Assembly (NCBI GenBank): GCA_050179755.1
Contig: JBFXEV010000001.1
Span: 1,161,994-1,225,993, forward strand
DNA from: Candidatus Babeliales bacterium
Lineage (GTDB): Bacteria > Babelota > Babeliae > Babelales > JBFXEV01
Direction of reading: 5' to 3'
Length of the DNA stretch: 64,000 bases
The translations under genes and the position numbers were made by a program. This document shows, in pieces, positions 3,789 through 51,678 of the stretch (position 1 is its first letter; every line of letters begins with the position of its first letter). Under the pieces are notes generated by a model. That model did not search any database. It had not been told where the DNA came from and saw only the letters and a list, made by a program, of their open reading frames with translations.

Positions 3789-5519
3789 ATGCCAGTTATG
3801 CAAACTATAAGTAATGTAATGTATGGCGTTATTGCACTAGCACTTGCCGCTGGTGTGGTAACAGTTCAGTTGCAACAAAAATCTATACAGGAATCTCTCA
3901 AAGAATTACATCAGCGCTTTGACGCTATTCGCACAGAATCTCCAGAGGTACCTCATATTGTAGAGCGTGTAGTTGCCCATAATCATCAACCATGGAGTGA
4001 TTTGCAGGCAACGCTCAAAGATTCAGTAGTACAAATATTCTCACAAATCGCAGAAGTAAATTTATTACAGCCTCAAAAACCGCGCAGCCAGCACCAAGCA
4101 TATGGTTCAGGTTTTTTTATTAATGACGAGGGTGAAATTATAACCAATGCCCATGTGGTTGATCAAGCTGCTGCCGTGTGGATTCAAATTCCTTCGTTAG
4201 GTAAACGGCAATTGGATGTTGATATTATAGGCGTGAGTCCGGATCGCGATATGGCTTTGCTTAAATTACGCCCAGAAGGTATAGCATTAATTAAACAGGT
4301 ACGTGGCGAAATTCCTTATTTGCAATTAGGCGATTCAGATCGTATTCATCGTGCAGATGAAATATTAACTCTTGGTTATCCATTAGGTCAACAAGGTCTT
4401 AAAAGCACAAAAGGCGTGGTGAGTGGTAGAGAGCAGCATTTGATTCAAATTGATGCAGCAATTAACCCTGGCAATTCTGGAGGTCCATCAATTAATGTGA
4501 ACGGCGAAGTAGTAGGTATTAACACGGCTATAGCGCGTGAAGCACAGAATGTTGGGTATATTATTCCTGCCAACGAACTTAAAGTAATTCTTGCAGATTT
4601 GCGCACGGTACCGTTATTGCGGCGTCCATTTTTAGGCATTTTATTTAATAATGCAAGTGAAAGTTTAACTGACTTTTTGGGTAATCCAAAGCCAGGTGGT
4701 TTGTATGTGGTTGATGTCATTAAAGGTAGTCCGCTTCATAAGGCTGGCGTATTAAAGGGTGATATGATTTATGAAATCAATGGTCATCAGGTAGATATGT
4801 ATGGAGAACTTTCATGGACCGAAGATAAAATTTCTATCATTGATTATGTATCGCAATTGCGCCTTGGTGAAGAAGTTGGCTTGGTAGTTTATCGCAATGG
4901 TTCGCGCAAAAACCTTACGTTCTCATTTGAACAGTCAGATGCTTTGCCCATTCATAAAATATATCCAGGATATGAAGATATTGATTATGAAATAGTGGGT
5001 GGGATGCTCGTGCAGCAATTGACGGTGAATCATTTAGGATTGCTAGTGAATATGGCGCCCAGTCTTGCAAAATATGCAGAAATGAAATATCAAAAAGAGC
5101 CTGCGCTTTTGGTAACACACGTGTTTCCCGATTCTCCTGCACATCGTTGTCGCTCTATTGGTATTGGTGCAATTATTAATAAGATCAACGATGAGCCTGT
5201 GCAAACACTTGATGAATTGCGTTGCCAGCTTGCAAAGAGTTTTGAGACCAATAATGTAACAATTGAATCTGCTGATGGCGTGTATTTACACTTTCCATTT
5301 AATGATATTCTTAAAGAAGAACGTAGATTGTCTCGCATATGGTCATATGGTATGACTACCGCTATGACTGAACTGGTTTCTGGTTATGAAGTGCGTCTGG
5401 CGCAAGCAGAGCAGAAGTATATGCACGAGCAAATGCAGCAGCAAGCAGTGCCGGGACAAGTAGCAATGCAAGTTGCGCAAACTGATGCCCCTGTGGGTGT
5501 AGATGCGGCAGCTGCTTAA
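3789..5519 (+). CDS. HtrA/DegP-family trypsin-like serine protease with PDZ domains and N-terminal membrane anchor
   Basis: GSGF, TNAHVV (His), DMALLK (Asp), GNSGGP (Ser); PDZ-type motifs GSPLHKAGVLKGD and PDSPAHRC. Confidence 0.93.
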   Translation: MPVMQTISNVMYGVIALALAAGVVTVQLQQKSIQESLKELHQRFDAIRTESPEVPHIVERVVAHNHQPWSDLQATLKDSVVQIFSQIAEVNLLQPQKPRSQHQAYGSGFFINDEGEIITNAHVVDQAAAVWIQIPSLGKRQLDVDIIGVSPDRDMALLKLRPEGIALIKQVRGEIPYLQLGDSDRIHRADEILTLGYPLGQQGLKSTKGVVSGREQHLIQIDAAINPGNSGGPSINVNGEVVGINTAIAREAQNVGYIIPANELKVILADLRTVPLLRRPFLGILFNNASESLTDFLGNPKPGGLYVVDVIKGSPLHKAGVLKGDMIYEINGHQVDMYGELSWTEDKISIIDYVSQLRLGEEVGLVVYRNGSRKNLTFSFEQSDALPIHKIYPGYEDIDYEIVGGMLVQQLTVNHLGLLVNMAPSLAKYAEMKYQKEPALLVTHVFPDSPAHRCRSIGIGAIINKINDEPVQTLDELRCQLAKSFETNNVTIESADGVYLHFPFNDILKEERRLSRIWSYGMTTAMTELVSGYEVRLAQAEQKYMHEQMQQQAVPGQVAMQVAQTDAPVGVDAAAA

Positions 5520-5538
5520 TTTATTAGAAATTTAATAT

Positions 5539-5570
5539 CCCGCTCAGTTTTTATGTAAAATTGAGCGGGA
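5539..5570 (+). terminator. Hairpin after the HtrA gene
   Basis: CCCGCTCAGTTTT...AAAATTGAGCGGG inverted repeat. Confidence 0.5.
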
Positions 5571-5584
5571 ATCTTAGAAGTATT

Positions 5585-6316
5585 ATGCCAAAAAAACGCC
5601 TTGATCTTTTAGTACAGGAAAAATACCCTCAGTTAACAAGAACGCATATTCAAAGCCTTATTATGCAAGGCAAAGTACGTGTTTATGATCAGGTGATCAC
5701 TAAAGCAGGGCAAGCAACGCATGAAGATGCGGAAATTGCTGTTGATCTTGCAGTTCCCAAGTTTGTCTCTCGCGCCGGGTTTAAGCTTGAAAAAGCATTA
5801 GATCATTTTGGGATTGATGTAACTGACTTTCTGGTACTTGATGCAGGACTTTCCACTGGAGGTTTTACTGATTGTTTACTTCAGCGTGGTGCCAAGAAAA
5901 TTTTTGGTGTGGATGTAGGCCATGCCCAAGTGCATGAAAAAATCCGGCGTGATCCTCGCGTGGTGGTCATGGAGCAAACTAATTTACGGTATCTGGAATC
6001 ATTGCCAGAAAAAGTAGATTTGGTAACGCTTGATCTCTCTTTTATTTCTGTTCTTAAAGTTATGGATGCTGTCACGAAACAATTAAAACCACAGGGCAAG
6101 CTGATAGTGCTTATTAAACCGCAATTTGAAGCTGAAAAGCATCAAGTGGGTAAGGGTGGCATTATCAAAGATCCTGCGGTTCATCAAGAAGTTATTGATA
6201 AAATAACTAACGGCATAGAATCGTTTGGGTACACGTGCCAAGGGGTTATTGAATCGCCCATTGAAGGTGGTGATGGTAATAAAGAGTTTCTAGCGTACTT
6301 TAATAGAAATTTTTAA
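5585..6316 (+). CDS. tlyA: TlyA family rRNA (cytidine-2'-O)-methyltransferase
   Basis: S4 domain KKRLDLLV; FVSRAGFKL, STGGFTDCLLQ, DLSFIS, LIKPQFE, GNKEF motifs; ATG 5585 preferred. Confidence 0.95.
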   Translation: MPKKRLDLLVQEKYPQLTRTHIQSLIMQGKVRVYDQVITKAGQATHEDAEIAVDLAVPKFVSRAGFKLEKALDHFGIDVTDFLVLDAGLSTGGFTDCLLQRGAKKIFGVDVGHAQVHEKIRRDPRVVVMEQTNLRYLESLPEKVDLVTLDLSFISVLKVMDAVTKQLKPQGKLIVLIKPQFEAEKHQVGKGGIIKDPAVHQEVIDKITNGIESFGYTCQGVIESPIEGGDGNKEFLAYFNRNF

Positions 6317-6460
6317 ACAAATCCTTTTTTGATATCTCTTAGTTTAAAGATTCATGCTTATTATTTAACGAGTAATGTAAAAGACTTGCATTATTAATTT
6401 CTGCATTGTTACTCTTAAAGGGAATGGTATGAGTTTGGGGTTATCAAATAAGGAACGAAT

Positions 6461-7141
6461 ATGGAAATAAAGAGAATGGTGGTAATGTTGGGTTTAATGC
6501 TCAACATAATAGGTCTTTTGGCACAGCCAACATATTATGAAATTTTAGGCGTGTCTAAAACTGCTTCTGAAAGTGATTTGAAAAAAGGGTATCGCAAAAA
6601 AGCTTTAGTGTTGCATCCTGATAAAATACAAGAGCGAACAGGAATGCCTGCTACATCTGAACAAACCAAGAAATTTCAGGAGTTAGTGGAAGCATATGAT
6701 GTACTTAAGGATCCTCTAAAGAAAAGAGAGTATGATATAAAGTTAGCCCAAGCAGCAAAGGCTTCATCAACACCAAAACCGCAATCAGCGCAACAGCAAT
6801 ATAAGCCTGCATCAAAACCGCAGCAGGCAACTGGGCCCAAGCCAGCACAATCACAGTATAAACCAACGCCAAAACCGCAAACAACTCAGCCTCAATATAA
6901 GCCTGCGCCAAAGCCACAGCCCACTCAACAACAATTTAAACCGATTCCAACGCAAGCACAAAAACCTCAAGTGCCTGCTGCAAAGCCAGCACCAGCAGCT
7001 GCAAAGTCGGCATTTAAACCAGCAGCCGCAAAAAAAGAGTATGATTTTTCGTGGTTAGAATCTGAAGATGAATCAGATGATTCTTTGAGCGCAGGCAATT
7101 CATCTGACGAATCAGATTATTCAGATGATGAAGATTACTAG
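6461..7141 (+). CDS. Signal-peptide J-domain (DnaJ-like) protein with P/Q/K-rich linker and acidic tail
   Basis: YYEILGV...LKKGYRKKALVLHPDK...FQELVEAYDVLKDP; repeats of QYKP(A/T)PKPQ. Confidence 0.9.
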   Translation: MEIKRMVVMLGLMLNIIGLLAQPTYYEILGVSKTASESDLKKGYRKKALVLHPDKIQERTGMPATSEQTKKFQELVEAYDVLKDPLKKREYDIKLAQAAKASSTPKPQSAQQQYKPASKPQQATGPKPAQSQYKPTPKPQTTQPQYKPAPKPQPTQQQFKPIPTQAQKPQVPAAKPAPAAAKSAFKPAAAKKEYDFSWLESEDESDDSLSAGNSSDESDYSDDEDY

Positions 7142-7204
7142 TGAATTATTGAATTAATAGAACAACGGTATGGGTAGTTGGTGCTTAAGCGCTTACTGCC
7201 CATT

Positions 7205-7597
7205 TTAATTGTGATAAATCTGCTTTTTAATGGATGTAATTCTTTTTTGCAGTTCACGCTGTTTGAGTACTAAGGCAACAGAGCTTATCGGGCCCAAAAA
7301 TGCAGTTCCTGGTGATAGCTCTGTATAATCATACTTTATTTCTTCTAATTCATTATACCATTGTTCAAGTTGTTGCACCCTTACTCTAGATTTAGAGCAG
7401 TTTTGTTGCGAGCGAATTTCTCTTTGTAAATCATTAATATGGGCTAAGATCTTGAGATCTTGCTCATCAGCTTCATGAATGGAACTTGGCGGTTTTATAG
7501 GTGGCTGACAGCTTAAATGCGCCATAAAAAAGGTAAGTGCAACGAGTAGGTAGATGCTTATAGTGCTTGTTTTGAATTTGACATTAAAAAATGGCAT
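7205..7597 (-). CDS. Hypothetical protein, possible lipoprotein with coiled coil
   Basis: Hydrophobic leader ending HLSC; RBS AGGAGG. Confidence 0.6.
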   Translation of the reverse strand: MPFFNVKFKTSTISIYLLVALTFFMAHLSCQPPIKPPSSIHEADEQDLKILAHINDLQREIRSQQNCSKSRVRVQQLEQWYNELEEIKYDYTELSPGTAFLGPISSVALVLKQRELQKRITSIKKQIYHN

Positions 7598-7715
7598 ATG
7601 GACCTCCTGAATCCTGGCTTCTATTCATATATTCAGTATATGAAATCAGGTGGTTTTGGTCAATGGCAAAAAATTAGCTTTTTTACAGGAGTTACGGTAA
7701 AATATGTAACGTAAT

Positions 7716-7792
7716 GCGCCTGTAGCTCAATTGGATAGAGTACCGGACTTCGAATCCGTTGGTTGTAGGTTCGACTCCTACCAGGCGCACCA
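7716..7792 (+). tRNA. tRNA-Arg (anticodon TCG)
   Basis: GCGCCTG acceptor stem, D-arm TAGCTCAATTGGATAGAG, loop CTTCGAA, GGTTCGACTCC T-arm, encoded CCA. Confidence 0.95.
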
Positions 7793-7895
7793 GGCTCCAC
7801 TCCTGACGGAGTTACGCCTGGCTGTTGCCAATCTTCGGATAAATTAATTTTATCAATAGAATGATTTTCTGGAGAGTGGTGACTGGCAAAGCCTG

Positions 7896-8016
7896 TTCTT
7901 CGAAGCTCGAAGAGCGAAGTAGAAGCCAGCATCTTTAATGGAGTTATTCAATAAGCTATTTGAAAATTGATTTTTTCGGCCAAGTATGCCCTTCGTAGCT
8001 TCAGCGTAGTAGGGCA
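7896..8016. repeat. Two REP-like imperfect palindromes (7896..7924 and 7987..8016)
   Basis: TTCTTCGAAGCTCGAAGAGCGAAGTAGAA and TGCCCTTCGTAGCTTCAGCGTAGTAGGGCA share CTTCGWAGCT...AGCGWAGTAG. Confidence 0.6.
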
Positions 8017-8037
8017 CTCTCTATTAGAGGAGAAACG

Positions 8038-8874
8038 ATGAAGAAATATACAATAATTCTCGCGATAAATTTTCTTTTAGTGTCATGTATGGCAACTGCC
8101 CATCAGCTTGATAATGAATATGCAAAGGCCTTTACTGATTTAATAGAATTGGTATATGGCCCAGAATTGCTTTCGCAAGGGGGCACGCAGTCAATAGACT
8201 TACTATTTGAAGGCCAAGAACTTAATGGCAAGAAGGTGCTCGATATAGGATCTGGGCTTGGCGGTGTAGATTTTTATATAGCCAAAAAATTTGCTGTTGA
8301 TGTTACTGGGATTGATTGTGTGCAACGCATGGTAAATGACGCACATAACCGAATAGCAAAGCAGGTATTGCAAGGAGCGGTGCACTTTATGCATCAAGAG
8401 CCAGAAGTAGTAACATATCCCTTTGCAGATAACACATTTGATATAGTATTTTCCAAAGAAGCATTTTTGCACATACCCAATAAAGCTCCTCTCATAAAAG
8501 AAATATATCGCGTATTAAAGCCTGGCGGGCAACTTATTATTCTTGATTGGTTAGTAGATTCACCTAATCTGGGCGCGCTTGTTACTGAAATGATGGTAGT
8601 TGATGGCTTAGATTTTCATATGGCTACTATTGGCGAATATCAAAGTTTTTGCAAACAAGCAGGATTTGCCTTTGAATCTGTCAGTGTTTTAAACGATCTC
8701 TATGCGAAATTTTGCTCAGATAATATTGCTACTATTCAAATTAAACACAAAGAACTTATTGAGTTATTTGGACAAGAGACTTACGAATATTGCTTAAAAA
8801 TCTGGGCGCTTCAAAAAGAAATTTTTGAAAAGGGTGAAGTGCTTGTTACGTTGTTGAAGGCGACTAAGGTTTAA
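8038..8874 (+). CDS. Class I SAM-dependent methyltransferase (phosphoethanolamine/sarcosine N-methyltransferase-like) with signal-like leader
   Basis: VLDIGSGLGG, FDIVFSKEAFLHI, VLKPGGQL; N-terminal ELVYGPELLSQGG resembles PEAMT domains. Confidence 0.85.
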   Translation: MKKYTIILAINFLLVSCMATAHQLDNEYAKAFTDLIELVYGPELLSQGGTQSIDLLFEGQELNGKKVLDIGSGLGGVDFYIAKKFAVDVTGIDCVQRMVNDAHNRIAKQVLQGAVHFMHQEPEVVTYPFADNTFDIVFSKEAFLHIPNKAPLIKEIYRVLKPGGQLIILDWLVDSPNLGALVTEMMVVDGLDFHMATIGEYQSFCKQAGFAFESVSVLNDLYAKFCSDNIATIQIKHKELIELFGQETYEYCLKIWALQKEIFEKGEVLVTLLKATKV

Positions 8875-9022
8875 AGTGATTTATTAGTAAATGGTCCAGA
8901 GGGTTTGGTACGTCGCCGCCTTATTCATTTTTGCATGCGGTAAATTCGTCATTTGCGGCGAATTCGGGCAGTCTTTGCTCTTTCCATAGAATGATAAATC
9001 AAGGATTAATTACATTCCCTAG

Positions 9023-9064
9023 CCCTTCGATACAAATCACTTCGTGATTCACTCAGGATGGACG
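9023..9064. repeat. REP-like palindromic element, copy 1
   Basis: CCCTTCGATAC-AAATCACTTCGTGATT-CACTCAGGATGGACG; related copy at 48520. Confidence 0.65.
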
Positions 9065-9165
9065 AAGACTGGCTTGCCAGTCATTTGCTCGGCTTGATTA
9101 ATATTTTCTATGATCATATACTTCAACCGCTACCTAGCTTTTAATGATTGGCTTTGGCAAATGAC

Positions 9166-9242
9166 TGGTGCGCCCGACAGGATTTGAACCTGTGGCCTAA
9201 AGATTAGGAATCTTTCGCTCTATCCACCTGAGCTACGGGCGC
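9166..9242 (-). tRNA. tRNA-Arg (anticodon CCT)
   Basis: Reverse complement GCGCCCGTAGCTCAGGTGGATAGAGCGAAAGATTCCTAATCTTTAGGCCACAGGTTCAAATCCTGTCGGGCGCACCA. Confidence 0.95.
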
Positions 9243-9326
9243 GTATACTAAGTAATGATATTAAGAATACTGTATTCTTAAGCAATTTTCTAATTTAGTA
9301 GCATTTTACATTATTATAGCCAAGCC

Positions 9327-10523
9327 ATGCAAAAAAGAACACATATTATTATCGGCGCATCTGCAGCAGGCATGGGCGTACTCAATCAACTGCGTACGCT
9401 TGATCCAGAAAGTAACATAGTATGTATTGCAAGAGATACGGCATGGCCTTATAATACGTGCTTTTTGGCTGATTATCTTTCAGGCACTAAGCAGCATGAG
9501 CAACTTGCCTTAAAGCCTCAAGAATTTTTTGAGAAAAATAGTATAAAGTTAATGCTTGGCAAAGAAGTAATTTCAATTGATAGAGTAAAGCGCACCATAA
9601 CACTTAGTGATTCAACAACGTATACCTATGATACGTTATTTTTAGGAACGGGTGTTAGCCCACGTACATTGACTCTTGAAGGTGCTGATACTAGTGATGC
9701 TCTCTTTTATTTTCATACGCATGATGATGCCATTAAAATTAAAGAATTCATTTTAAACAAGCCCGTGAAGCGGGCTGTGGTTATTGGTGCAGGATTATCG
9801 GGCCTGGAAGTGGCTGATTCTTTGAACAAGAATGGAATTGCGGTTACCATAGTTGAACAATCACTTCAAGTTTTGCAGCATCACGCCGATCGGGCAAGCA
9901 TGAAATTATTGAAAGAGTTGGCCTTGTCGCATAATACAACGATTATGGTAAATAATGCTGCGCGTGCATTAGTAACTCAAAATGATAAGCTTGTGGGCCT
10001 TGATTTAGTATCGGGTGAGCGTATTGACACATCAATAATTGTGATAGCAATTGGTGCGCTTGCTAATAGCGCACTAGCGCGTGATGCGGGCCTTGCAATA
10101 GAATATGATGCAATTGTGGTAAATGATGTTATGCAAACAAGTGATCCTGCTATTTTTGCTGGTGGTGACGTATGCCTTGTGCGTGAGCGCGTAAGCAACC
10201 GGCTTATGCGTAATGGCGCCTGGCCTGATGCTATGCATCAAGGGCTCATTGCAGCACATTCAATGGCGGGAGTGCCAAAATCATATCCTGGCGCAGTTAA
10301 CATAATAAGCTCCGCATTCTTTGGGGTGCATTTTTTTTCATGTGGGCCAGTGATGGCAGATGATCATGGCTATAAAATAAAAATTATGCAGGGTGATGGA
10401 TTTTATCACAAATTTTTGTTTGAAGGTGACATATTAAAAGGCTTTTTGCTTGTTGGCAATACTCAAAAAGCAGCTGAGTATCGTAAGTTTTATCTTGCAC
10501 AAGTGCCTTTCCCGTTCTTTTAG
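9327..10523 (+). CDS. FAD-dependent pyridine nucleotide oxidoreductase (NADH:rubredoxin reductase/NirB-N-like)
   Basis: IIIGASAAG, VVIGAGLSGLE, TSDPAIFAGGD motifs. Confidence 0.9.
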   Translation: MQKRTHIIIGASAAGMGVLNQLRTLDPESNIVCIARDTAWPYNTCFLADYLSGTKQHEQLALKPQEFFEKNSIKLMLGKEVISIDRVKRTITLSDSTTYTYDTLFLGTGVSPRTLTLEGADTSDALFYFHTHDDAIKIKEFILNKPVKRAVVIGAGLSGLEVADSLNKNGIAVTIVEQSLQVLQHHADRASMKLLKELALSHNTTIMVNNAARALVTQNDKLVGLDLVSGERIDTSIIVIAIGALANSALARDAGLAIEYDAIVVNDVMQTSDPAIFAGGDVCLVRERVSNRLMRNGAWPDAMHQGLIAAHSMAGVPKSYPGAVNIISSAFFGVHFFSCGPVMADDHGYKIKIMQGDGFYHKFLFEGDILKGFLLVGNTQKAAEYRKFYLAQVPFPFF

Positions 10524-10533
10524 CGTGAATAGA

Positions 10534-10995
10534 TTATCGTCTGATGTATTCGCCAGTCCAATATAAATTTTCTTCGGGCAAAGTTGTAGTTATTTCTATT
10601 TTGGCATCGCGAATAGTAATTTTTGCATTTTGGGCAATTTCGCTAAATAGTTTATTTGAGGGTGAGTGAAAGTCAGTCAAGAGATAGGTTATTCCTTTTG
10701 GTTGTTCCTCGTCTGCATGTTCATGCACCGAAAGCTGTTGAGAAGCTTGAGCGCCTAGAATTGAAAATCCAAAAATGGCATCACCTGGATTTTTACTGGT
10801 GATAGAAGCCTTATCTGGTGTATAGACCCAATCACTCCAATATAGTTCATTGGTTTTTTGATCACGAAAGCGCATGCGTACGTTGATATGTTCACGGCTA
10901 TCGTTTGCTAGATTCACTGTAATTGCCAGAATATTGCAGGAAGCAAGCAGGCTTACTGCACAAAATAGAGAGGCGCATATGGTTTTCATATTCAT
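10534..10995 (-). CDS. Secreted hypothetical protein
   Basis: Signal peptide; 153-aa ORF with RBS. Confidence 0.6.
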   Translation of the reverse strand: MNMKTICASLFCAVSLLASCNILAITVNLANDSREHINVRMRFRDQKTNELYWSDWVYTPDKASITSKNPGDAIFGFSILGAQASQQLSVHEHADEEQPKGITYLLTDFHSPSNKLFSEIAQNAKITIRDAKIEITTTLPEENLYWTGEYIRR

Positions 10996-43063: not shown

Positions 43064-44590
43064 ATGAAATTCCATTCATACTTACCTGTTTTAGTAGTAT
43101 TCATAAGCGCTCATTTTATACTCAATGCAATGGAGCCAGAAACTCTTACTGTGCATACCAAGCGCTTTGGTAAGGCAATTAGCTTTACACGCCCTGCGCT
43201 TAGTGGTTTGGATCAAAAATTATGGCCGGTTGTCTTTTCAGGTTGTAGAGCAAAAAATGAAAGGCAACGAGCTGCAGTGGTAAGCATGTTAGAAAAATTA
43301 ATAACTCAAGGCGCTAATCTCAACGGTCAATATGTTATAACTAACGATGATGAAACTGCTGCACAAGTTGGTTTAGAGCAAGCTGGCTTTACACCGCTTG
43401 AATGTTCAATTGTGGCAGGTAATGTTCAATTTTCACGTGATTTGTTGAAGTTGGGTGCTCGTGTTGATGCTCCTTCTGATATGAATTCGGCGCTACATGC
43501 TGCAGCACTTAATAGTAATGCACGAGTTGTTCCAGAACTTCTTGCTCGTGGCGCAGATGTTAATTTCCGCGACATGTGGGGGCAATCAGCAATATTTAAT
43601 GCAGTTTACAATAAAGACCATGCAATCTTTGATGCGTTAGCTAAAGATCCCTCACTTGAATGTGATGTTCCTGATAATCATGGCCAAACAGCATTGCATT
43701 ATGCCGTATTAGTGCAGGATCCCTCTCTTGTTATGATTAGTAAATTGCTTGCGCGCGGCGCAAGTCCGCACAAAGAAGATCGCTTAGGGTGTTCTCCCCT
43801 TGGATACGCTCGCTTGGCAGGCAATAAGCCAGTTGTAGATATGCTTGAAGGTAAAGTAGCTCAAGATGGATGGCTTGCAGGAACGGTTACTGCAGATTCT
43901 TATAAAGCTAAGCAAAAAAAACGTGAAACTTCTGGTGCCAAGAGACAAACAAATAAATCAAAGAAAAAGGCTAATGAGTTAAAGAGATCAACTTCGGGTG
44001 TGCAAATTGAGCCGATTTCTCCTACTAAGAAAATTAGAGAAGCGTTGCAAGGGGTCACGCTTGGTTCACCGCGTGTTTTATTTAATCAAACTAGTGACGC
44101 AGTAGAAGAGGTAGAAACCTTACAACCAGAACAACATAACTTTATTGAGCTTACATTTGATGCGCGCGTAACAGATTGGTTTGATGAAACATTTTTAAAT
44201 GAAGAAAAAGAAAAGTCTACATCGCATTTGCAGCTTGCTCGTTCGATTTATTATCACCAAATTCCTCAAGACGTAATTCGTTGTGTAATGCAACATGGCA
44301 AGCGCGAACCTTATGAGAGTCAGACGCGCAAAGATAGTGGAACTACATGGTATTTAAGAGGCAACATGATATTCGAAAATGCTTATGAAAATCCATGGCA
44401 ACAAGGTAAAGGTAATCAGCCAGGTTGGTATCACTGCACCATGGATTCACGCGGCGTGATATATCATGTTGGTTTTGATGTTATAAAAGAAAGTGCGCCC
44501 TTGCTTTCTGCATTCTTGCCAAAAGGTATTACTAAAGAAGTTACTTATCCTGGTGCACTAGCAGGTATTAGCCATCAGTTTGTATTATAA
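43064..44590 (+). CDS. Ankyrin-repeat protein with Lys-rich linker and uncharacterised C-terminal domain
   Basis: Signal ending LNA|ME; GFTPLE, SALHAA, GQTALHYA, GCSPLGYA. Confidence 0.88.
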   Translation: MKFHSYLPVLVVFISAHFILNAMEPETLTVHTKRFGKAISFTRPALSGLDQKLWPVVFSGCRAKNERQRAAVVSMLEKLITQGANLNGQYVITNDDETAAQVGLEQAGFTPLECSIVAGNVQFSRDLLKLGARVDAPSDMNSALHAAALNSNARVVPELLARGADVNFRDMWGQSAIFNAVYNKDHAIFDALAKDPSLECDVPDNHGQTALHYAVLVQDPSLVMISKLLARGASPHKEDRLGCSPLGYARLAGNKPVVDMLEGKVAQDGWLAGTVTADSYKAKQKKRETSGAKRQTNKSKKKANELKRSTSGVQIEPISPTKKIREALQGVTLGSPRVLFNQTSDAVEEVETLQPEQHNFIELTFDARVTDWFDETFLNEEKEKSTSHLQLARSIYYHQIPQDVIRCVMQHGKREPYESQTRKDSGTTWYLRGNMIFENAYENPWQQGKGNQPGWYHCTMDSRGVIYHVGFDVIKESAPLLSAFLPKGITKEVTYPGALAGISHQFVL

Positions 44591-44742: not shown

Positions 44743-46125
44743 CTACAAACGGTTCTGTACTAATTTTTTAAAACAGTTACCACGTTCTTCATAATGTTTA
44801 AATAAATCGTAGCTGGAGCCCCCAGGTGAAAGCAATACCGTATCACCTGCTGTTGCAATAGTGCACGCTTTTTCAAATGCTTCTTCAAGAGTTGCAGCGC
44901 TCGTGTAAGCGCGATCTGCAGTTTTGCACATATCGCCCAATGATTCGGCTTCTTTGCCAAAGCATATAACATGTGTAACGTTGTGAGGTAATTGTTGTAT
45001 ATAGGGTGTGCGATCTACGCCTTTACTTAAGCCTCCAAGTAATAATATAATTGGGCCTTTAACTTGCTCTACTGCAGCAAGCGTTGACTGGGCAATAGTG
45101 GCTTTTGAATCATTAATAAAGTGCACGCCATGCACGGTACCAATTAGTTCCATGCGATGTTCAAGCTCTTTAAAGCAGGGTGACGTGTGATAAATATCGC
45201 CTTTATCAAGAAGATTAAATCCTGCAAAACAAATTAACCAATTAATTGCTTGCGTGCCAATAAGTGCTTCGGGTAAATCAACAATTACTTTTATGGTGGT
45301 GCCATGTTTTTTAATAACTTGCGTGTCATGGTAATAAAAGAGTGTGCAGTGTTGTGGTAATAAACTTATTTGTGCAGTAGTAGGTTCGTGTAGGCTGAAA
45401 AAATTAAGATGCGCTTTGAGCGCAGGTAAGTAACCTTGTGCATGTAGCACAGGCAATAACTCAAGCGGCATGAGTGCGTGCTGGGTTTCTTTTTGATAGA
45501 GAAACAATTTCATCTTTGCAGCAAGATATTCTTCCATAGTCCCATGCCTATCCAGATGATTAGGATAGAGGTTAGTAAGAATGGCAACATCAGGAGCATA
45601 ACGTTTGTTATGTTCTAATTGAAAGCTAGAAAGTTCTACCACGCCAATTTCAGGATCTACTTGTTCATTAATCACCGGATCAATCCAATGAATTAATGCC
45701 AGCAATGGGGTGCCGATATTGCCTACCGCAATGCTATAGGTACTGTGCGCATTAAGCAAAGCATCAAGTTGCGTGGTTACCGTTGTTTTGCCAACAGTAC
45801 CGGTAATAGCAACTGTTGGCGTTGTCGCATAATGCGCGAATATGTCAACTTCTGCAAGCCATTTGTGAGCAAACTGCGCATGAGGGCGTAAATCAATGCC
45901 GGGGCTTGGTACAATATAATCATGTGATTCCAAAAAATGCAGTAAATCATTTTCATTTTTTTGGTGAATAAATTTGGCATTACTTTCTGACAAGAGTCCA
46001 AACTGTTCAGCCGTCATCGAATGTGCATCAAGCACGGTAATGTGCTTGCAATAGCGCGAAAGAAATTGCACTGCCGAGGTGCCAACGGCGCCAAATCCCC
46101 AAATGCCTAATTTTTTATTTTTCAT
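44743..46125 (-). CDS. murD: UDP-N-acetylmuramoyl-L-alanine--D-glutamate ligase
   Basis: SPGI, ITGTVGKTT, GNIG.P, ELSSFQLE, NHLDRH, EHRME, NDSKAT, LLSPG..SYD. Confidence 0.95.
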   Translation of the reverse strand: MKNKKLGIWGFGAVGTSAVQFLSRYCKHITVLDAHSMTAEQFGLLSESNAKFIHQKNENDLLHFLESHDYIVPSPGIDLRPHAQFAHKWLAEVDIFAHYATTPTVAITGTVGKTTVTTQLDALLNAHSTYSIAVGNIGTPLLALIHWIDPVINEQVDPEIGVVELSSFQLEHNKRYAPDVAILTNLYPNHLDRHGTMEEYLAAKMKLFLYQKETQHALMPLELLPVLHAQGYLPALKAHLNFFSLHEPTTAQISLLPQHCTLFYYHDTQVIKKHGTTIKVIVDLPEALIGTQAINWLICFAGFNLLDKGDIYHTSPCFKELEHRMELIGTVHGVHFINDSKATIAQSTLAAVEQVKGPIILLLGGLSKGVDRTPYIQQLPHNVTHVICFGKEAESLGDMCKTADRAYTSAATLEEAFEKACTIATAGDTVLLSPGGSSYDLFKHYEERGNCFKKLVQNRL

Positions 46126-46369
46126 AAAATATTCCAAGCTCTTTACATTTTAATGTTTTGTAAGTTCTTTTTTGAAAATGAGCTTTATCTGTTATTTAGT
46201 GTTATTAGTGTAGTTTTTTTAGAGGTAGTTGAAAAGGCTTAATTATGGCAAATCATATTGAGATGCTGTTTTTGGATTGTTTAGTTTTAAAAAATGAGTA
46301 CAATTGAGCTGATTCAAATTCCATAGTTTTTCTATACACCAGTTAGTTAGCTTTAACAAGGGATGTACT

Positions 46370-47644
46370 ATGTCTGTTCACAAATATATTCTTTTTTTTA
46401 TTTGTTTATTTGGTTCTCAATTAAATGCAGGATTTATTGCAGGGACTATTATCAAAACAACGCAAGGTTATATTCCCATTGAGATGATAGTAGAAGGTGA
46501 CCAAGTATGCTCTTACAATACTGAAAAGAATGTATTTGAATTCTATGCGGTTACGCATATAAATCAAAAGAAGGTGACTCATTTAAAAAGCATTGCGGTT
46601 GATCAAGCTATTATTATTACTGATACAGAACAGCAGTTTTATCTATGCAATGAAGAAAAATGGATCAATGCTTTAGATTTACAGCCTGGAATGCAACTGC
46701 AAAGTTATTTGAATAAAAAGTTATGCATTAGTGAGGTAAAAGATTTTTTTATTAATGCAATTATTTACGAATTGACAGTTGAATGTAATCATAATTTTTG
46801 TGTAACAACACATGAGCTTGTTGCGCATAATTTTGTAATCGCTATACCAATTTTGGTTTTTGGAAGTGGGAAAATAGCTTTGGCTACAGGAGCTTTTAAA
46901 GCATTTGTTCTTGGAGCTGGAACCGCGCTTGGTTATATTGCAATTTCTAAGATGATAGGAGCATCGTTAGATGAAAATATGGATCTTTCTCATGTAAATT
47001 TTGAATCTTCTGATCCATTTGCGCAGAAAGGCGGCATTTACGAAGTTGAGAAACAAACTCATGGACCGCGTGCTGGTCAAGGTTGCATCACAGGCGTGCA
47101 TGATACGTCTACTTCATTTCCTAAAAAGCCATGCGTACAACCGCTGAGTGGCACTACTGAGTTAACTTGCGGGACTGGCAATGAGAAATCACTCATTTAT
47201 GGAGATTATGTAGGAAAGCAATCAAGTGAAATATTGCCCCAAGATGCTGTATTTGAAAAGAGATGCATCATTTCTGATCCAAAGTTACTAAGTGAGCTTG
47301 AGCAAAAAGAAAATGGTTTTGCTGAATTGGACTTGAATGCAGTAAAAGAACAAGCCGCTTTGTACAAAAAGAATTCTCAACCAAAAGCACCAGACCCTAA
47401 TGGAGCGCAGGCGCCGGGCTTACCTGAAGAAAAACATGGTTTTGAGCCGCCAAAAAATTGGGACGGTAAAAAAGTAAGACACCCAGATAATGGAAGAATT
47501 GGTTGGCCAGATAAGTATGGTTATATATGGGTTCCGTCAGGACCGTTTGGGCATGGTGGTGCGCATTGGGATGTGCAAGATCCTGATGGTAGAAGTTATG
47601 ATAATGTTTATCCAAGCGGACATATTAGGCCAGGAAGAAAATAA
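46370..47644 (+). CDS. Polymorphic toxin: signal peptide, Hint (pretoxin) domain, hydrophobic segment and C-terminal toxin domain (Ntox37-like)
   Basis: LNA|GFIAGT...PIE...GD.V...IYELTVECNHNFCV...LVAHN|F; C-terminal GWPD..G.IWVP.G..GHGGAHWDVQ. Confidence 0.85.
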   Translation: MSVHKYILFFICLFGSQLNAGFIAGTIIKTTQGYIPIEMIVEGDQVCSYNTEKNVFEFYAVTHINQKKVTHLKSIAVDQAIIITDTEQQFYLCNEEKWINALDLQPGMQLQSYLNKKLCISEVKDFFINAIIYELTVECNHNFCVTTHELVAHNFVIAIPILVFGSGKIALATGAFKAFVLGAGTALGYIAISKMIGASLDENMDLSHVNFESSDPFAQKGGIYEVEKQTHGPRAGQGCITGVHDTSTSFPKKPCVQPLSGTTELTCGTGNEKSLIYGDYVGKQSSEILPQDAVFEKRCIISDPKLLSELEQKENGFAELDLNAVKEQAALYKKNSQPKAPDPNGAQAPGLPEEKHGFEPPKNWDGKKVRHPDNGRIGWPDKYGYIWVPSGPFGHGGAHWDVQDPDGRSYDNVYPSGHIRPGRK

Positions 47645-47653
47645 AGGAAAAAT

Positions 47654-47920
47654 ATGCAAGAAATTGTTTTGATATGTACACCGTTGAGATTTTATAGTCA
47701 AAATGATGAAGATTTAATGTTTGGATGGCTCGATAAAATTAAAAGTGTAACAAGTTATAAAGGCATTGGTCGTGAATTACATGTATATATAAAATCTAAA
47801 AATATACCTAAATTAGACTTATTAGAGCTGATGGGAATATTTGATAGATATAAATTTGATGCAAAGCAATTAGAAATTTTTAAGAATGAATCAAATCAGA
47901 AATGGTTTGAAGAGAATTAA
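47654..47920 (+). CDS. Probable cognate immunity protein
   Basis: 88-aa ORF 9 bp after the toxin stop, RBS AAGGA, no signal peptide. Confidence 0.7.
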   Translation: MQEIVLICTPLRFYSQNDEDLMFGWLDKIKSVTSYKGIGRELHVYIKSKNIPKLDLLELMGIFDRYKFDAKQLEIFKNESNQKWFEEN

Positions 47921-48046
47921 TTGTAAGTTTTCTAAATCTTGCATTGTTTAGCGCTTTTTTGTAGCACTCTTGCCTTTATTACCCATTTTTGGTTATGCTA
48001 AAAGTAAAGGGGGATGGCTTTAATACGCCATAAAAAGGTAATTATA

Positions 48047-48484
48047 ATGAACATCAAACAATTCTATACTATTATTGCATCTGTTTTAGCGCTTATTTCA
48101 TTGGGCATTATTAGCTCGTTAAGAGCGGTAAAGCTGGAAGATCCCACCAAATCTTTAGATTTTCGAGTGCGAGAATGTTTAAAAACCGACTATCCGGGCC
48201 AATGTGTGCGTAAGCGCGGGCTTATTGTGCCTGGTTTAACTCGTATTCACCGTTTTGTTATCTATGGCGGAGAATTAAACGTAAATAGGCGGCGCGAGAG
48301 TGGTTTGCCCAATGACGAGTATAGGCAGCTTGATGAAGACTTTTTGCAAGTAGTCATCTCTTCAGGTGCCCGCATTAATACCAAAGATAGTCTTGGCCTT
48401 ACTGCTCTAGATTATGCCCAAAAGAATAGCAATATGTTTGCTATTCTCAGGCGTGCCGGCGCAAAGCATAGCTCAGAACTCTGA
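48047..48484 (+). CDS. Small secreted protein with a C-terminal ankyrin repeat
   Basis: GARINTKDSLGLTALDYA...LRRAGA; start could also be 48014. Confidence 0.7.
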   Translation: MNIKQFYTIIASVLALISLGIISSLRAVKLEDPTKSLDFRVRECLKTDYPGQCVRKRGLIVPGLTRIHRFVIYGGELNVNRRRESGLPNDEYRQLDEDFLQVVISSGARINTKDSLGLTALDYAQKNSNMFAILRRAGAKHSSEL

Positions 48485-48690: not shown

Positions 48691-51678
48691 ATGTCAGAGA
48701 ACAGCAGTACTAAAAAGTCAGAAAATAGCTTTAAAAACAGTCTTAATCTACCGCAGACTGATTTCCCTATTTGGCCTTCTCATGCAGAAATTGACGCTAA
48801 AATGCTCAAAAGATGGCAGGATGAAGGGCTTTATGCTAAAGCTATGGCTTATAATGCTGGTAAGTCCAAGTTTATCCTTAATGATGGCCCGCCTTATTCA
48901 AATGGGCATATTCATTTGGGCCACGCGTATAATAAAATTTTAAAAGATATTTCGTGTAAATCACGCCGCATGGCAGGTCTTCATGTGCCGACCGTCCCCG
49001 TGTGGGATTGCCATGGCTTGCCCATAGAGCTTAAGGTAACTCAAGAGCATCCTGGCTTGACTGGTATTTCTTTTATAGAAGCCTGCAGAATTTATGCTCA
49101 AAAATGGGTGAATATTCAGCGTGATGAATTTAAGAAATTAGGTGTCTTATTCGATTGGGATAATCCTCGCATGACGATGGACTATCCGTATGAGGCGAGC
49201 ATTCTCCGAGCGTTTGGTTCATTTGTAGCGCAAGGTTATATTGAACGTAAATTACGCACGGTGCCATGGTGTTATTCGTGCCAGACTGTGCTTGCAGCGG
49301 CAGAAATTGAATACCAAGAGCGCAAAGACCCTTCAGTGTATGTGCGTTTTCCATTGCCAGATGCTACGATAGCAAAAGCTTTGCCTGAACTTAAAGGTAA
49401 AGCGGTAAGTTTGCTCGTATGGACTACTACGCCGTGGACATTGCCATTAAACCGTGCCGTGCTCATGAAGCCTACTATTGAGTATGCTGTATTAGAGCAT
49501 GAAGGTAACTACTTTGTGGTAGGAGCGTCTCTTGCCGATGCTGTATGCGCCAAGGCTGGATTTGCAAAAAATGTAGTGACCACTGTTACTTCTGCAAATC
49601 TTGCAGGGCAATTGGTGAATCATCCGTTTATTGCGGGGCAACAAGTGCCTATAATTGTTGATACTATGGTAGCAACCGATGAAGGTACTGCATTTGTGCA
49701 TTGCGCGCCAGGATGTGGGCCAGTAGACTATGATGTTGCAGTAAAAAATAAATTAGAAGTATTTTCACCGTTAAGCCCTGACGGCAAATATACCAAGGGC
49801 ATACAGCCAGTTGAGCTTGAGGGCATGTCTATTGATGACGGCCAATGGTGGGTACTCAAAAAACTTGCAGAACTTGGCACTTTATTTGTAAAAGAGTCAG
49901 TGCGCCATTCATACCCTCATTGCTGGCGTTGCCATAAAGGGCTTATGTTTAGGGCAACAAAACAATGGTTTTGTAAGCTAGAGCATAAAAATTTAAAAGG
50001 ACGGGCATTAGAGGTAGTTGAAAATGAGCTTGTATTTATGCCGCCTACGGGCAAGCAATCCTTGCGTGCAACGATAGATACGCGCCTTGAATGGTGCCTT
50101 TCTCGCCAGCGCACTTGGGGCGTGCCTATACCGGGGCTTATCTGTAAAACATGTGATTGCGCTTTTATAAGCAAAGAGCTTATTGAGAAAGTAGCAGAGC
50201 ATGTGGAACACGAGGGCATCAGTTATTGGCAAAAAGTTTCGATTGAGCAATTGACAAATTCGCTTGAATGTAGAGAATGTAAGGGTACCATATTTGAAAA
50301 AGAGGCCGATATTATCGATGTTTGGTTTGAATCAGGTGTAAGCCATTATGCAGTACTTGAAAAAGATCCAATATTGCGGTATCCTGCTGATCTTTACTTA
50401 GAGGGTATAGATCAGTATAGAGCATGGTTCCAAAGCAGTTTGCTCACCAGCTTGGTAGTTGAAGGAACGCCATGCACCAAGGCCTTTTTGGCACATGGTT
50501 TTACCGTTGACGAGAAAGGGCATAAAATGTCTAAGTCTCTTGGCAACGTGGTGGCGCCTGATGATATCACCAAACAGTTGGGCACTGATGGGTTGCGATT
50601 ATGGGTGGCTAGTCTGGATTACGGTGATGATGCGGTAGTGTCTGAAAAGTTAATGAAAAACGTGGCCCAAGTATATCGCAAGGTGAGAAATACTTGTAGA
50701 TTCTTGCTTTCAAACCTTTATGACTTTGACATTACGCGTGATGCAGTTGAGCTTAATAAGTTACAGCTCATTGATCAACATGCGCTTTTGATGCTTTCTC
50801 AGTTTAATGATAGAGTACGCAAAGCATATGAAGATTATAATTTTACGGCAATATTCCATGAATTGGCAGATTATTCGTCAGTGGAATTGAGTGCGTTTTA
50901 TTTAGACGTTATCAAAGATCGTTTATACGTGGAAGATCCTACGGGTCACAAACGGCGATCGGCGCAAACGGCATGCTGGTACATTCTAGATACGTTAACC
51001 AAGCTTATGGCGCCAATTTTGTCATTTGCTGCAGAAGAAGTGTCTGATGAATATCAGAAAAATAAAACTGAATCAATTCACTTGCAGGGATTTGTTAATT
51101 TGGAGCCAGTGGTAAAAGCACTTGTAACGCAAGGGCAAAAAAGGCGTACAGAAAATAAAGGGGAAGTGTTTGATGGTGCTGCATTTATGGCACATCATGA
51201 ACGGCAATGGGAATTATTATTTAAAATAAGATCTCAAGTAATGAAGGCAATTGAAAAACAAAGAGAGTTAGGGATAATAAAACATCCTTTAGAAGTTGCG
51301 TTGACAATACGGTTTAATTTAGCAGAAGAAGAAATGGCTATGCTACAAGAATTTTTGAATGATTTAGAACAAACAGGTCAAAATCCTCAAGACTTTTACA
51401 AAGAGTTTTTCGTGGTATCAGAAGTAGATGATTACTATGATGACGAAGATGAATTTGATGATGAAGAAGATGAGTTTGAGGATGAAGACGAATTTGATGA
51501 CGAAGATGAAGACGAGGACGAAGATTTGTTCTACGATCTTTCTGGTCTAGAAGTACGTGTTGACAGAGCGAGCGGCGATAAATGCCCTCGCTGCTGGCAA
51601 TATGAGGTGACTGATCACGCGCTCAAATTGTGCTCGCGTTGCCAGTGTGTTATGGCCAAGCTTGAGGGTCATGCATAA
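48691..51678 (+). CDS. ileS: Isoleucine--tRNA ligase (type 1, C-terminal Zn finger) with acidic insertion
   Basis: DGPPYSNGHIHLGH, WDCHGLP, WTTTPWTLP, WCLSRQR, KMSKS, KCPRCW...CSRC. Confidence 0.97.
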   Translation: MSENSSTKKSENSFKNSLNLPQTDFPIWPSHAEIDAKMLKRWQDEGLYAKAMAYNAGKSKFILNDGPPYSNGHIHLGHAYNKILKDISCKSRRMAGLHVPTVPVWDCHGLPIELKVTQEHPGLTGISFIEACRIYAQKWVNIQRDEFKKLGVLFDWDNPRMTMDYPYEASILRAFGSFVAQGYIERKLRTVPWCYSCQTVLAAAEIEYQERKDPSVYVRFPLPDATIAKALPELKGKAVSLLVWTTTPWTLPLNRAVLMKPTIEYAVLEHEGNYFVVGASLADAVCAKAGFAKNVVTTVTSANLAGQLVNHPFIAGQQVPIIVDTMVATDEGTAFVHCAPGCGPVDYDVAVKNKLEVFSPLSPDGKYTKGIQPVELEGMSIDDGQWWVLKKLAELGTLFVKESVRHSYPHCWRCHKGLMFRATKQWFCKLEHKNLKGRALEVVENELVFMPPTGKQSLRATIDTRLEWCLSRQRTWGVPIPGLICKTCDCAFISKELIEKVAEHVEHEGISYWQKVSIEQLTNSLECRECKGTIFEKEADIIDVWFESGVSHYAVLEKDPILRYPADLYLEGIDQYRAWFQSSLLTSLVVEGTPCTKAFLAHGFTVDEKGHKMSKSLGNVVAPDDITKQLGTDGLRLWVASLDYGDDAVVSEKLMKNVAQVYRKVRNTCRFLLSNLYDFDITRDAVELNKLQLIDQHALLMLSQFNDRVRKAYEDYNFTAIFHELADYSSVELSAFYLDVIKDRLYVEDPTGHKRRSAQTACWYILDTLTKLMAPILSFAAEEVSDEYQKNKTESIHLQGFVNLEPVVKALVTQGQKRRTENKGEVFDGAAFMAHHERQWELLFKIRSQVMKAIEKQRELGIIKHPLEVALTIRFNLAEEEMAMLQEFLNDLEQTGQNPQDFYKEFFVVSEVDDYYDDEDEFDDEEDEFEDEDEFDDEDEDEDEDLFYDLSGLEVRVDRASGDKCPRCWQYEVTDHALKLCSRCQCVMAKLEGHA

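Follow-up and report, generated by a model that had tools for sequence, protein, structure and literature searches.

A probable polymorphic toxin–immunity pair on a minimal leader–Hint scaffold in a Babeliales (Dependentiae) bacterium

Here we describe two adjacent genes in a 64,000-nucleotide stretch of the genome of a Candidatus Babeliales bacterium (assembly GCA_050179755.1, contig JBFXEV010000001.1, positions 1,161,994 to 1,225,993 of the forward strand), which is called the window throughout. The first open reading frame (ORF), 46370..47644 on the plus strand, encodes a protein of 424 residues in which a leader is directly followed by a Hint domain and which ends in an Ntox37 domain; the second, 47654..47920 on the same strand, starts after 9 bp and encodes a leaderless protein of 88 residues. 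In our judgement, these genes probably form a genuine polymorphic toxin–immunity pair, carried by a minimal scaffold and working by the mechanism proposed below. A first-pass annotation of the same DNA had put forward a Sec-exported, Hint-autocleaving pair of this kind, and its coordinates (both ORFs, Gly21 at 46430, Asn154 ending at 46831 and the 9-bp gap) were all correct. The parts of the pair are the following:

46370..46429, plus strand: Sec-type signal-peptide-like leader, residues 1-20 (MSVHKYILFFICLFGSQLNA), in which the n-region contains K, the core is hydrophobic and positions -3 to -1 read L-N-A
46430..46831, plus strand: Hint domain of the PT-HINT or A-type bacterial intein-like (BIL) kind, residues 21-154, from Pfam and the alignment with 2lwy_A
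46832..46966, plus strand: Gly/Ala-rich hydrophobic segment, residues 155-199, best 19-residue Kyte-Doolittle (KD) mean 1.96, 16% Gly
46967..47407, plus strand: linker, residues 200-346, from alignment A2; no Pfam match
47408..47644, plus strand: Ntox37 tip, residues 347-424 and the stop codon, from Pfam, alignment and structure model
47654..47920, plus strand: 88-residue leaderless immunity candidate of an uncatalogued family (alignment A1), from its linkage to Ntox37

The C-terminal tip is an Ntox37 domain

The resemblance of the tip to toxins of the Ntox37 type, noticed at first pass by eye, is borne out by the Pfam profile Ntox37 (PF15535), which matches residues 347-417 of 424 with 44 bits against a cut-off of 27.8. 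Among 36 aligned Ntox37 sequences, K362, D381, H399, W400, D401 and N412 are invariant, together with other positions, and H395 is nearly so. The structure model of the tip is all-beta, with five strands and no helix of at least 4 residues (predicted local distance difference test, pLDDT, 83; predicted template modelling score, pTM, 0.72). Ntox37 has been described as an all-beta domain with a conserved E, a [KR] and an Hx[DH] motif, for which RNase activity was predicted (Zhang 2012, PMC3482391; cited here and below from part of its text). The tip agrees with the published fold and with the [KR]...Hx[DH] part of the motif (K362 and H399-W-D401), while the conserved E of the motif was not located in it. 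The tip is predicted to be a metal-independent RNase.

A small partner gene accompanies Ntox37

The first-pass annotation took the small downstream gene as the partner of the toxin. To weigh this proposal we have the gene neighbourhoods of a phylum set of 261 genomes, all belonging to one order: a same-strand member of the A1 family lies downstream of each Ntox37 match (39/39), the median gap between the two matches being 33 nt (range 16-720), and the partnership is thus upheld. The A1 family is present in all 32 genomes that carry Ntox37, and 16 more genomes, some of which are incomplete, have A1 without an Ntox37 match, some of them in tandem arrays. The presence of the partner without the toxin, and its tandem arrays, fit a defence against an incoming toxin.

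The linkage extends beyond the phylum. We collected 80 Ntox37 loci across bacteria and divided them into three groups by record title and GC content (GC), the middle group being a labelling of this analysis. The number of loci with an A1 family member 6-63 nt after the tip is as follows:

Loci titled Dependentiae, Babeliales or Babelota: 11 of 11
Top-ranked loci under other titles or 'uncultured', GC 0.29-0.43: 12 of 13
Loci of other phyla, among them Nocardia, Sphingomonas and Burkholderiales: 33 of 56

Overall, the A1 family stands behind 56 of the 80 loci, and no A1 match was found elsewhere in these loci. In 21 of the 24 loci without A1 its place is taken by a second, unrelated family of about 100 residues (hhalign probability against A1 0.1; no Pfam match). 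Therefore, two partner families, neither of them in Pfam or NCBIfam, cover 77 of the 80 Ntox37 loci. The second family shows the motif KNIQVIDGA..GIHGTLFY..KK.YYP and is encoded by the first ORF after Ntox37 at loci within the range L076-L135; at L102 and L134, two tandem copies of it are fused in one ORF.

As regards the identity of the 88-residue protein, it matched no Pfam family at E<=1 and no NCBIfam entry, and the same lack of Pfam domains characterizes its 11 close homologs (80-104 residues). Zhang 2012 lists Imm32 as the immunity family of Ntox37 (PMC3482391); the 88-residue protein is not Imm32, since the Imm32 profile did not match it, and 19 relatives from other phyla were likewise without any family over the cut-off. 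The model of the partner (pLDDT 92) adopts a generic ferredoxin-like fold, and structure comparison returned generic ferredoxin- or ACT-like matches only (best E 0.11 with Foldseek, best Z 5.9 with VIA) and no known immunity family.

Prediction of the complex between the tip and the 88-residue protein gave a median score of 0.58 (0.49, 0.58 and 0.60), with the best of three controls at 0.00; it is graded as weak support and is not counted here as evidence. In these runs the partner had a pLDDT of at least 87 and at least 90% of the contacts agreed between runs. Of 157 solved complexes, 116 attain the mark used for such predictions, as do 2 of 215 mismatched pairs, and scores up to 0.60 include only 18 of the 157 solved complexes and both mismatches.

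The leader and Hint carry varied tips

The first-pass annotation had predicted that a common leader and Hint would be found with variable tips and variable downstream genes, and the opposite outcome, homologs all sharing one C-terminus, was named as the result that would speak against it. The genome itself holds three PT-HINT genes and one Ntox37 domain. The two paralogs of the window gene are built in the same way, with the leader, a G-F-(I/V)-E-G-T start, the Hint domain, a V-(V/A)-H-N motif with the hydrophobic stretch after it, and the linker motifs; their tips and downstream genes differ, with no Pfam family assigned to any of them.

One paralogous locus, L005 (G000:C1:1048000-1059000, positions 5111..10812), consists of a full toxin in a 609-residue frame and a 287-residue partner, which are followed by orphan tip fragments (8104..8559 and 8720..9010) and by further paralogs of the partner (8998..9867 and 9937..10812). 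Such a layout is typical of the orphan-cassette arrays of polymorphic toxins. By eye, the C-terminus of the L005 toxin looks restriction-endonuclease-like, although no member of the array matched a Pfam family. Orphan tip or immunity cassettes of the kind present at L005 (8104..10812) were not found at the window locus.

Of the 261 genomes in the phylum set, 89 have PT-HINT, at most 7 times each, and 32 have Ntox37. From the top of the PT-HINT listing we sampled 22 genes, in 19 other genomes, that had no Ntox37 nearby. All 22 exceed the PT-HINT cut-off and their tips are varied. Specifically, two have an Ntox21 tip and each of these is followed by a CdiI_N gene, a known toxin/immunity pairing; a CdiI_ImmP gene lies downstream of one sampled gene, and DUF6980 genes lie downstream of two. 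A recurrent unnamed tip appears in eight genes, seven of which are followed by a gene of about 200 residues with an IGYLWN motif, and Pfam has no family for either. This tip reads HPHG.Y..A.YHH..S.G.KS.AP.DGQ.ALD.S, on L038 (two genes), L041, L047, L049, L050, L052 and L057.

In three further sampled genes, only a Gly/Ala-rich hydrophobic tail of about 80-110 residues follows the His-Asn motif, and a small hydrophobic ORF comes next. These genes map to L039 525..1313, L040 3087..3935 (minus strand) and L046 3017..3703 (minus strand), with small ORFs of 76, 84 and 62 residues, respectively. The tail-only proteins look like Hint-released pore-forming bacteriocins accompanied by membrane immunity proteins.

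Since tips and neighbours vary in this way in all 22 sampled genes, one N-terminal module carries many cargoes, each with its matching neighbour. Together with the two paralogs of the same genome, the sample gives the pattern that the first-pass annotation expected, and a single shared C-terminus is not what was observed.

To see which carriers the Ntox37 tip uses, we scanned 56 of the 80 toxin frames; excluded were 22 other-phylum loci (mostly near-identical Nocardia or short frames) and two short Dependentiae frames. Of 22 Dependentiae-type loci, 16 have a Hint-family match together with Ntox37. None of the 34 from other phyla does, and RHS-type repeats are found in 14 of these 34 frames. 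The pairing of Hint with Ntox37 is therefore a speciality of the phylum, whereas the tip–partner pair is widely shared.

These data also bear on the target. A different view is that the protein is an effector aimed at the host, the RNase fragment hitting the RNA or the ribosomes of a protist and the 88-residue protein only shielding the producer until the toxin is exported, much as barstar does against barnase. The phylum is obligately host-dependent, the leader-bearing ankyrin-repeat neighbours of the locus are typical of host-directed effectors, and the hydrophobic head could aid entry through a vacuolar membrane; moreover, the toxins of intracellular bacteria are described as mostly aimed at the host in the part of Zhang 2012 cited (PMC3482391). 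The same part of that paper, however, ties use against the host to the absence of immunity genes, while here the partner is found in 39 of 39 cases. In addition, 16 genomes have the partner but not the toxin, tandem arrays of the partner exist, orphan cassettes of tip and partner are kept at the paralogous locus, and free-living bacteria use the same tip–partner pair on RHS carriers. On balance, we consider a host-directed effector unlikely.

A leader-adjacent Hint domain with its C-terminal motif intact

The Hint domain recognized at first pass is confirmed by the Pfam profile PT-HINT (PF07591), which covers residues 27-147 with 35.8 bits (gathering cut-off 27.7); Hint_2 and Intein_splicing gave sub-cut-off matches at the two ends of the domain. 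Among solved structures, its best match is 2lwy_A, a bacterial intein-like domain (E 3.8e-7), on which residues 21-154 align end to end with chain positions 4-138, so that Gly21 falls on the first block-A residue and His153-Asn154 on the final two residues of the chain. In the window protein Gly21 replaces Cys1 and Gln88 replaces the block-B His, while the domain retains His141 of block F and His153-Asn154 of block G. The domain also departs from an intein at both ends, having Gly at position 1 and Phe155 at position +1.

To find out how general these features are, we carried out a census of 51 leader-Hint toxins. A word-index search had returned 35 homologs, most of them 250-470 residues long with PT-HINT and Ntox37. 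The window ORF, its two own-genome paralogs and 26 of these homologs make up the 29 sequences of alignment A2, to which the 22 genes sampled from other genomes were added; nine homologs were excluded because they were N-terminally truncated, N-terminally extended or without a Hint domain. The census (n=51) gave the following counts:

Position 1 of the Hint domain: Gly in 50, Ala in 1
Position of the block-B His: Gln in 43, His in 7, Asp in 1
Block-F His: retained in 44
Penultimate His: present in all 51
Terminal Asn: present in all 51
Cys, Ser or Thr at position +1: 3

An exhaustive search with residues 21-200 against 1.84 billion representatives retrieved 2089 proteins at E<=0.001, 269 of them at E<=1e-10. 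In the best 150 of the 2089 relatives, the Hint domain starts within the first 60 residues in 132 and is internal in 18. Position 1 of the 132 leader-adjacent domains is Gly in 125, Ala in 2, Ser in 2, Asp in 1 and Cys in 1, with one sequence truncated, whereas the 18 internal domains have Cys in 14, Gly in 3 and Ser in 1. The loss of the nucleophile is therefore tied to the missing N-extein, in agreement with the earlier proposal that Cys1 disappears where there is nothing to cut on the N-terminal side. A word-index search with the same residues among proteins of 743-2120 residues found none at E<=0.001, which is weak evidence; in the exhaustive search internal Hint domains do occur in long proteins, and with Cys1.

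The leaders were assessed by sequence features only. A hydrophobic core is present in 45 of 50 family leaders and K or R in the n-region in 48 of 50. The (-3,-1) rule is satisfied directly before Gly1 in 20 of 50, including the window gene (L-N-A|G), and one residue earlier in 23 of 50, where His, Glu or Asp then precedes the Gly. Thus, in 43 of 50 the Hint domain begins within 0-1 residue of the predicted mature N-terminus. The first-pass suggestion that signal peptidase makes the N-terminal cut exactly at Gly1 stands for the first group of leaders, and has to be shifted by one residue for the second.

Engineered inteins without Cys1 still cleave at their C-terminus. Because of this, and of the conservation patterns above, Asn cyclisation appears to be the only reaction left in the Hint domain, a reading that is drawn from the sequences.

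The hydrophobic segment and the linker

The first-pass annotation had described a Gly/Ala-rich hydrophobic stretch after the His-Asn motif, and the KD mean and Gly content listed above for residues 155-199 support this description. In the 29 sequences of A2, the best 19-residue KD means range from 1.57 to 2.25 and Gly reaches 32%; by a Hessa-type scale, the totals of the best windows lie between 0 and +5.4 kcal/mol, which is marginal for stop-transfer. A KD window of at least 1.6 within 50 residues after His-Asn is present in 95 of 125 leader-Hint relatives versus 2 of 13 internal-Hint relatives. Three internal-Hint relatives have Gly1, namely these two and one more, whose value is 1.59. No Pfam family matched the segment at E<=10, hence it is not assigned to PT-TG or to a glycine zipper. 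Two RHS-Ntox37 toxins of other phyla (L116 and L130) carry the Pfam domain Gly-zipper_Omp between the RHS core and the tip, and a similar hydrophobic stretch follows the RHS core in P0035. We take the hydrophobic segment to belong to the cargo that is delivered, where it would probably serve to associate with a membrane or to enter the target.

As to the linker, those of the window toxin, its two paralogs and P0002 share the motifs VHDT[RS]SFP and [GT]CGTG, which contain Cys and the latter of which is sometimes repeated. In relatives of other genera, the linkers are merely 20-40 residues long.

A segment of this kind could also hold the protein in the membrane. In such a membrane-anchored module, which would be of a toxin–antitoxin or abortive type and no weapon, the segment would stop Sec transfer, the Hint domain would be periplasmic and the tip cytoplasmic, where the 88-residue protein would restrain it. 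The KD means given above come up to the usual transmembrane range, and the net charge just after the stretch is +2 or higher in 7 of 29 sequences; it is, however, -2 or lower in 6 of 29, with -4 in the window protein, and the stretches are Gly-rich and only marginally hydrophobic by the values already cited. Moreover, an anchored protein would have no use for an invariant cleavage motif that faces the periplasm. Polymorphic tips, orphan cassettes and tip/immunity pairs of the contact-dependent inhibition (CDI) type on the same scaffold are marks of a delivered toxin, and a glycine zipper precedes the same tip inside RHS cargo, where there is no Sec stop-transfer context. We therefore regard a membrane-anchored module as highly unlikely.

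A proposed mechanism and the points that weigh against it

A Hint domain that does not cleave at all, and is instead a constant domain for structure or adhesion, comparable to MafB-N, in a toxin that acts intact, would account for the substitution of two canonical catalytic residues and would have a precedent in the lineage-specific constant domains directly after signal peptides described in the cited part of Zhang 2012 (PMC3482391), but it is very improbable, since His-Asn in 51 of 51 sequences and the block-F His in 44 of 51 are hard to explain without selection for Asn cyclisation, the reaction that engineered inteins lacking Cys1 still support.

The mechanism that we favour is that of an exported, self-trimming toxin. 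Sec would export the pro-toxin, and the leader would be cut at Gly21 or one residue before it; with the leader removed there, the Hint domain would be left without an N-extein. It has lost both residues of the N-terminal reactions (Cys1 to Gly, block-B His to Gln) and retains the block-F His and the terminal His-Asn, which appear to serve the C-terminal reaction, so that only cyclisation of Asn154 is expected, breaking the Asn154-Phe155 bond. In effect, the Hint domain would be a self-removing N-terminal pro-domain. The freed fragment (residues 155-424) would begin with the marginally hydrophobic, glycine-zipper-like segment, whose role is most likely membrane association or entry into the target, and would end in the all-beta Ntox37 domain, the predicted metal-independent RNase. 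The leaderless 88-residue protein would bind and neutralise Ntox37 in the cytoplasm, both of producing cells and of immune kin. The targets would most likely be bacteria of the same phylum which share the host cell or the habitat.

Several points weigh against this reading. Searches of the tip against the Protein Data Bank gave no phmmer match at E<=10, a best E of 1.1 (unrelated) with the tip profile and a best E of 1.4 with Foldseek. In the VIA comparison of the tip model with 48,161 chains, the top two rows are the colicin E3 cytotoxic domain (Z 4.1, root-mean-square deviation 3.9, 75 residues aligned) and the E. cloacae CdiA-CT (Z 4.0, root-mean-square deviation 3.0, 60 residues aligned), both below the level that the tool takes as meaningful, with the next row at Z 3.2 and no chain at Z 5; the weak resemblance of this model to an rRNA-cleaving fold is a lead and not a result. 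On the N-terminal side, 7 of 50 leaders fit the (-3,-1) rule at neither position. The hydrophobic segment could be a stop-transfer anchor, and the net charge of the 15 residues that follow it, from -4 to +5, gives no consistent topology signal (n=29). An immunity gene by itself is no proof of bacterial targets. Secreted nucleases such as barnase also require a cytoplasmic inhibitor. Finally, a fragment of about 30 kDa would need a way across an outer membrane, be it that of the producing cell or that of the target cell.

A bolder version of the same mechanism can be formulated, which we put forward tentatively and would hold with less than even confidence. Here the leader–Hint(Gly1) unit would be a distinct self-removing pro-domain that defines a class of carrier-free, diffusible toxins, and the glycine-zipper head, once freed by Sec export and Asn cyclisation, would insert into the membrane of the target, carrying the tip across or, in members without an enzymatic tip, forming pores by itself; together, these toxins would provide the obligately intracellular Dependentiae with a bacteriocin-like arsenal against rivals in a shared host cell.

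Locus and genome context

The genome consists of one contig of 1,525,295 bp. The pair lies between murD (44743..46137, minus strand) and ileS (48691..51678). Its GC is 0.353, compared with a mean of 0.398 for the window, and is below that of all sampled 1551-bp windows (minimum 0.354). Within the pair the composition is a mosaic, with 0.301 for leader and Hint, 0.453 for the tip and 0.258 for the partner. The first-pass annotation had placed the locus in an AT-rich insertion between murD and ileS. The low GC and the position are correct. A recent insertion, however, is rejected: in G121, the only same-genus genome compared, murD and ileS likewise flank a Hint-Ntox37 gene, here with two partner copies, and because of this synteny the locus is not a recent insertion in our genome.

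The syntenic toxin ortholog in G121 (L036 579..1292, minus strand) is a 237-residue frame in which an in-frame internal deletion has brought the beginning of the hydrophobic segment next to the latter half of Ntox37; the two partner genes downstream are intact. In G121 the toxin thus appears to be decaying while immunity is kept.

Two sequences that may serve translation initiation were read from the DNA:

46358..46363, plus strand: Shine-Dalgarno-like AAGGGA ahead of the toxin start codon
47645..47648, plus strand: AGGA directly after the toxin stop, 6 nt before the partner ATG

Judging from this arrangement, translation of the toxin and its partner is likely coupled. A scan of the region for promoters and terminators found no excess of either (8 promoter-like sites against 10.2 expected, 3 terminator-like sites against 1.8). 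The sequencing runs listed with the stretch are three DNA metagenomes, all from a single study that may be the source of the genome, and no RNA run is among them.

The genome encodes two Omp85 proteins and two secretins, and the bacterium is therefore a diderm with possible outer-membrane routes. Next to the pair are two neighbours with a leader or anchor and ankyrin repeats, at 43064..44590 and 48014..48484. The 508-residue neighbour has Ank matches above the cut-off, and the 156-residue one only a weak Ank_4 match. These ankyrin-repeat neighbours flanking the toxin locus are probable host-directed effectors. In ileS, a run of about 40 residues that are almost all Asp or Glu (DDYYDDEDEFDDEEDEFEDEDEFDDEDEDEDEDLF) stands near the C-terminus, ahead of the final Cys-rich segment.

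Comparison with known systems

Export by Sec and the type II secretion system with HINT processing is in Table 1 of Zhang 2012 (PMC3482391), and the NCBI name of one homolog (P0021) is 'polymorphic toxin-type HINT domain-containing protein'; the kind of toxin is therefore already known. In the part of the 2012 paper cited, HINT sits near the C-terminus of large toxins, on carriers such as RHS, filamentous haemagglutinin, LXG/WXG and others, and the processing domains given there for Ntox37 do not include it (PMC3482391).

We found no description of a leader-adjacent Hint subclass with Gly1 and block-B Gln and a constant hydrophobic follower, although the supplementary architecture tables of Zhang 2012 may list similar short forms. 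Likewise, neither the spread of such toxins in Dependentiae with immunity genes and orphan arrays nor the two uncatalogued partner families of Ntox37 were found described in the literature. A literature search on Dependentiae with polymorphic toxins gave no match, and searches on Dependentiae Hint or Babeliales toxins gave nothing relevant among the matches listed; the portion available of the Chromulinavorax paper (PMC6561590) does not mention toxin or intein.

The window toxin shares with the PT-HINT toxins (PF07591) a Hint domain directly upstream of a variable C-terminal toxin and an immunity gene downstream. In those toxins, however, the Hint domain ends a large carrier, whereas here it adjoins the leader, has Gly1 and block-B Gln and is followed by a hydrophobic Gly-rich segment. 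With the A-type BIL domain (2lwy) it aligns end to end, and in both the terminal His-Asn lacks a nucleophile at +1. BIL domains have a flank on either side and rely on Cys at their N-terminus, while the window Hint has no N-flank and has Gly at position 1.

The comparison with colicin E3 and CdiA-CT, which cleave 16S rRNA and are all-beta, rests on the top rows of the fold comparison and on sister toxins that carry a CdiA-CT-type Ntox21 with CdiI_N; it differs from a true assignment in that the Z scores are below the meaningful level, no sequence-profile link exists and the catalytic residues could not be matched.

MafB of Neisseria is a Sec-dependent polymorphic toxin without a filamentous carrier, with a variable tip and an immunity protein, whose lineage-specific constant domain (MafB-N) comes right after the signal peptide according to the cited part of Zhang 2012 (PMC3482391); here, in contrast, the constant part is a Hint domain, predicted to be self-cleaving and able to remove itself from the cargo. 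The RHS-Ntox37 toxins (P0035 of Xanthomonas; L082, L116, L123 and L130) have the same tip, the same partner family of about 88 residues in 33 of 56 non-Dependentiae loci, and, after the release site and ahead of the tip, a stretch that is hydrophobic or a glycine zipper. They differ in that the RHS shell's own protease performs the release and the carrier's secretion system the delivery, with Hint found in none of 34.

Compared with these systems, the scaffold described here (leader, a module predicted to cleave itself, hydrophobic head and tip) is minimal and would provide a compact system for toxin entry without a large carrier. A natural Hint subclass keeping the C-terminal reaction only would be useful for uncoupling Asn cyclisation from the N-terminal steps. 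In addition, intracellular bacteria are stated in the cited part of the 2012 paper to be mostly without immunity genes, with Odyssella as an exception (PMC3482391); against this view, the PT-HINT genes in 89 of 261 genomes and the orphan immunity genes point to a toxin–immunity conflict that is widespread in an intracellular phylum.

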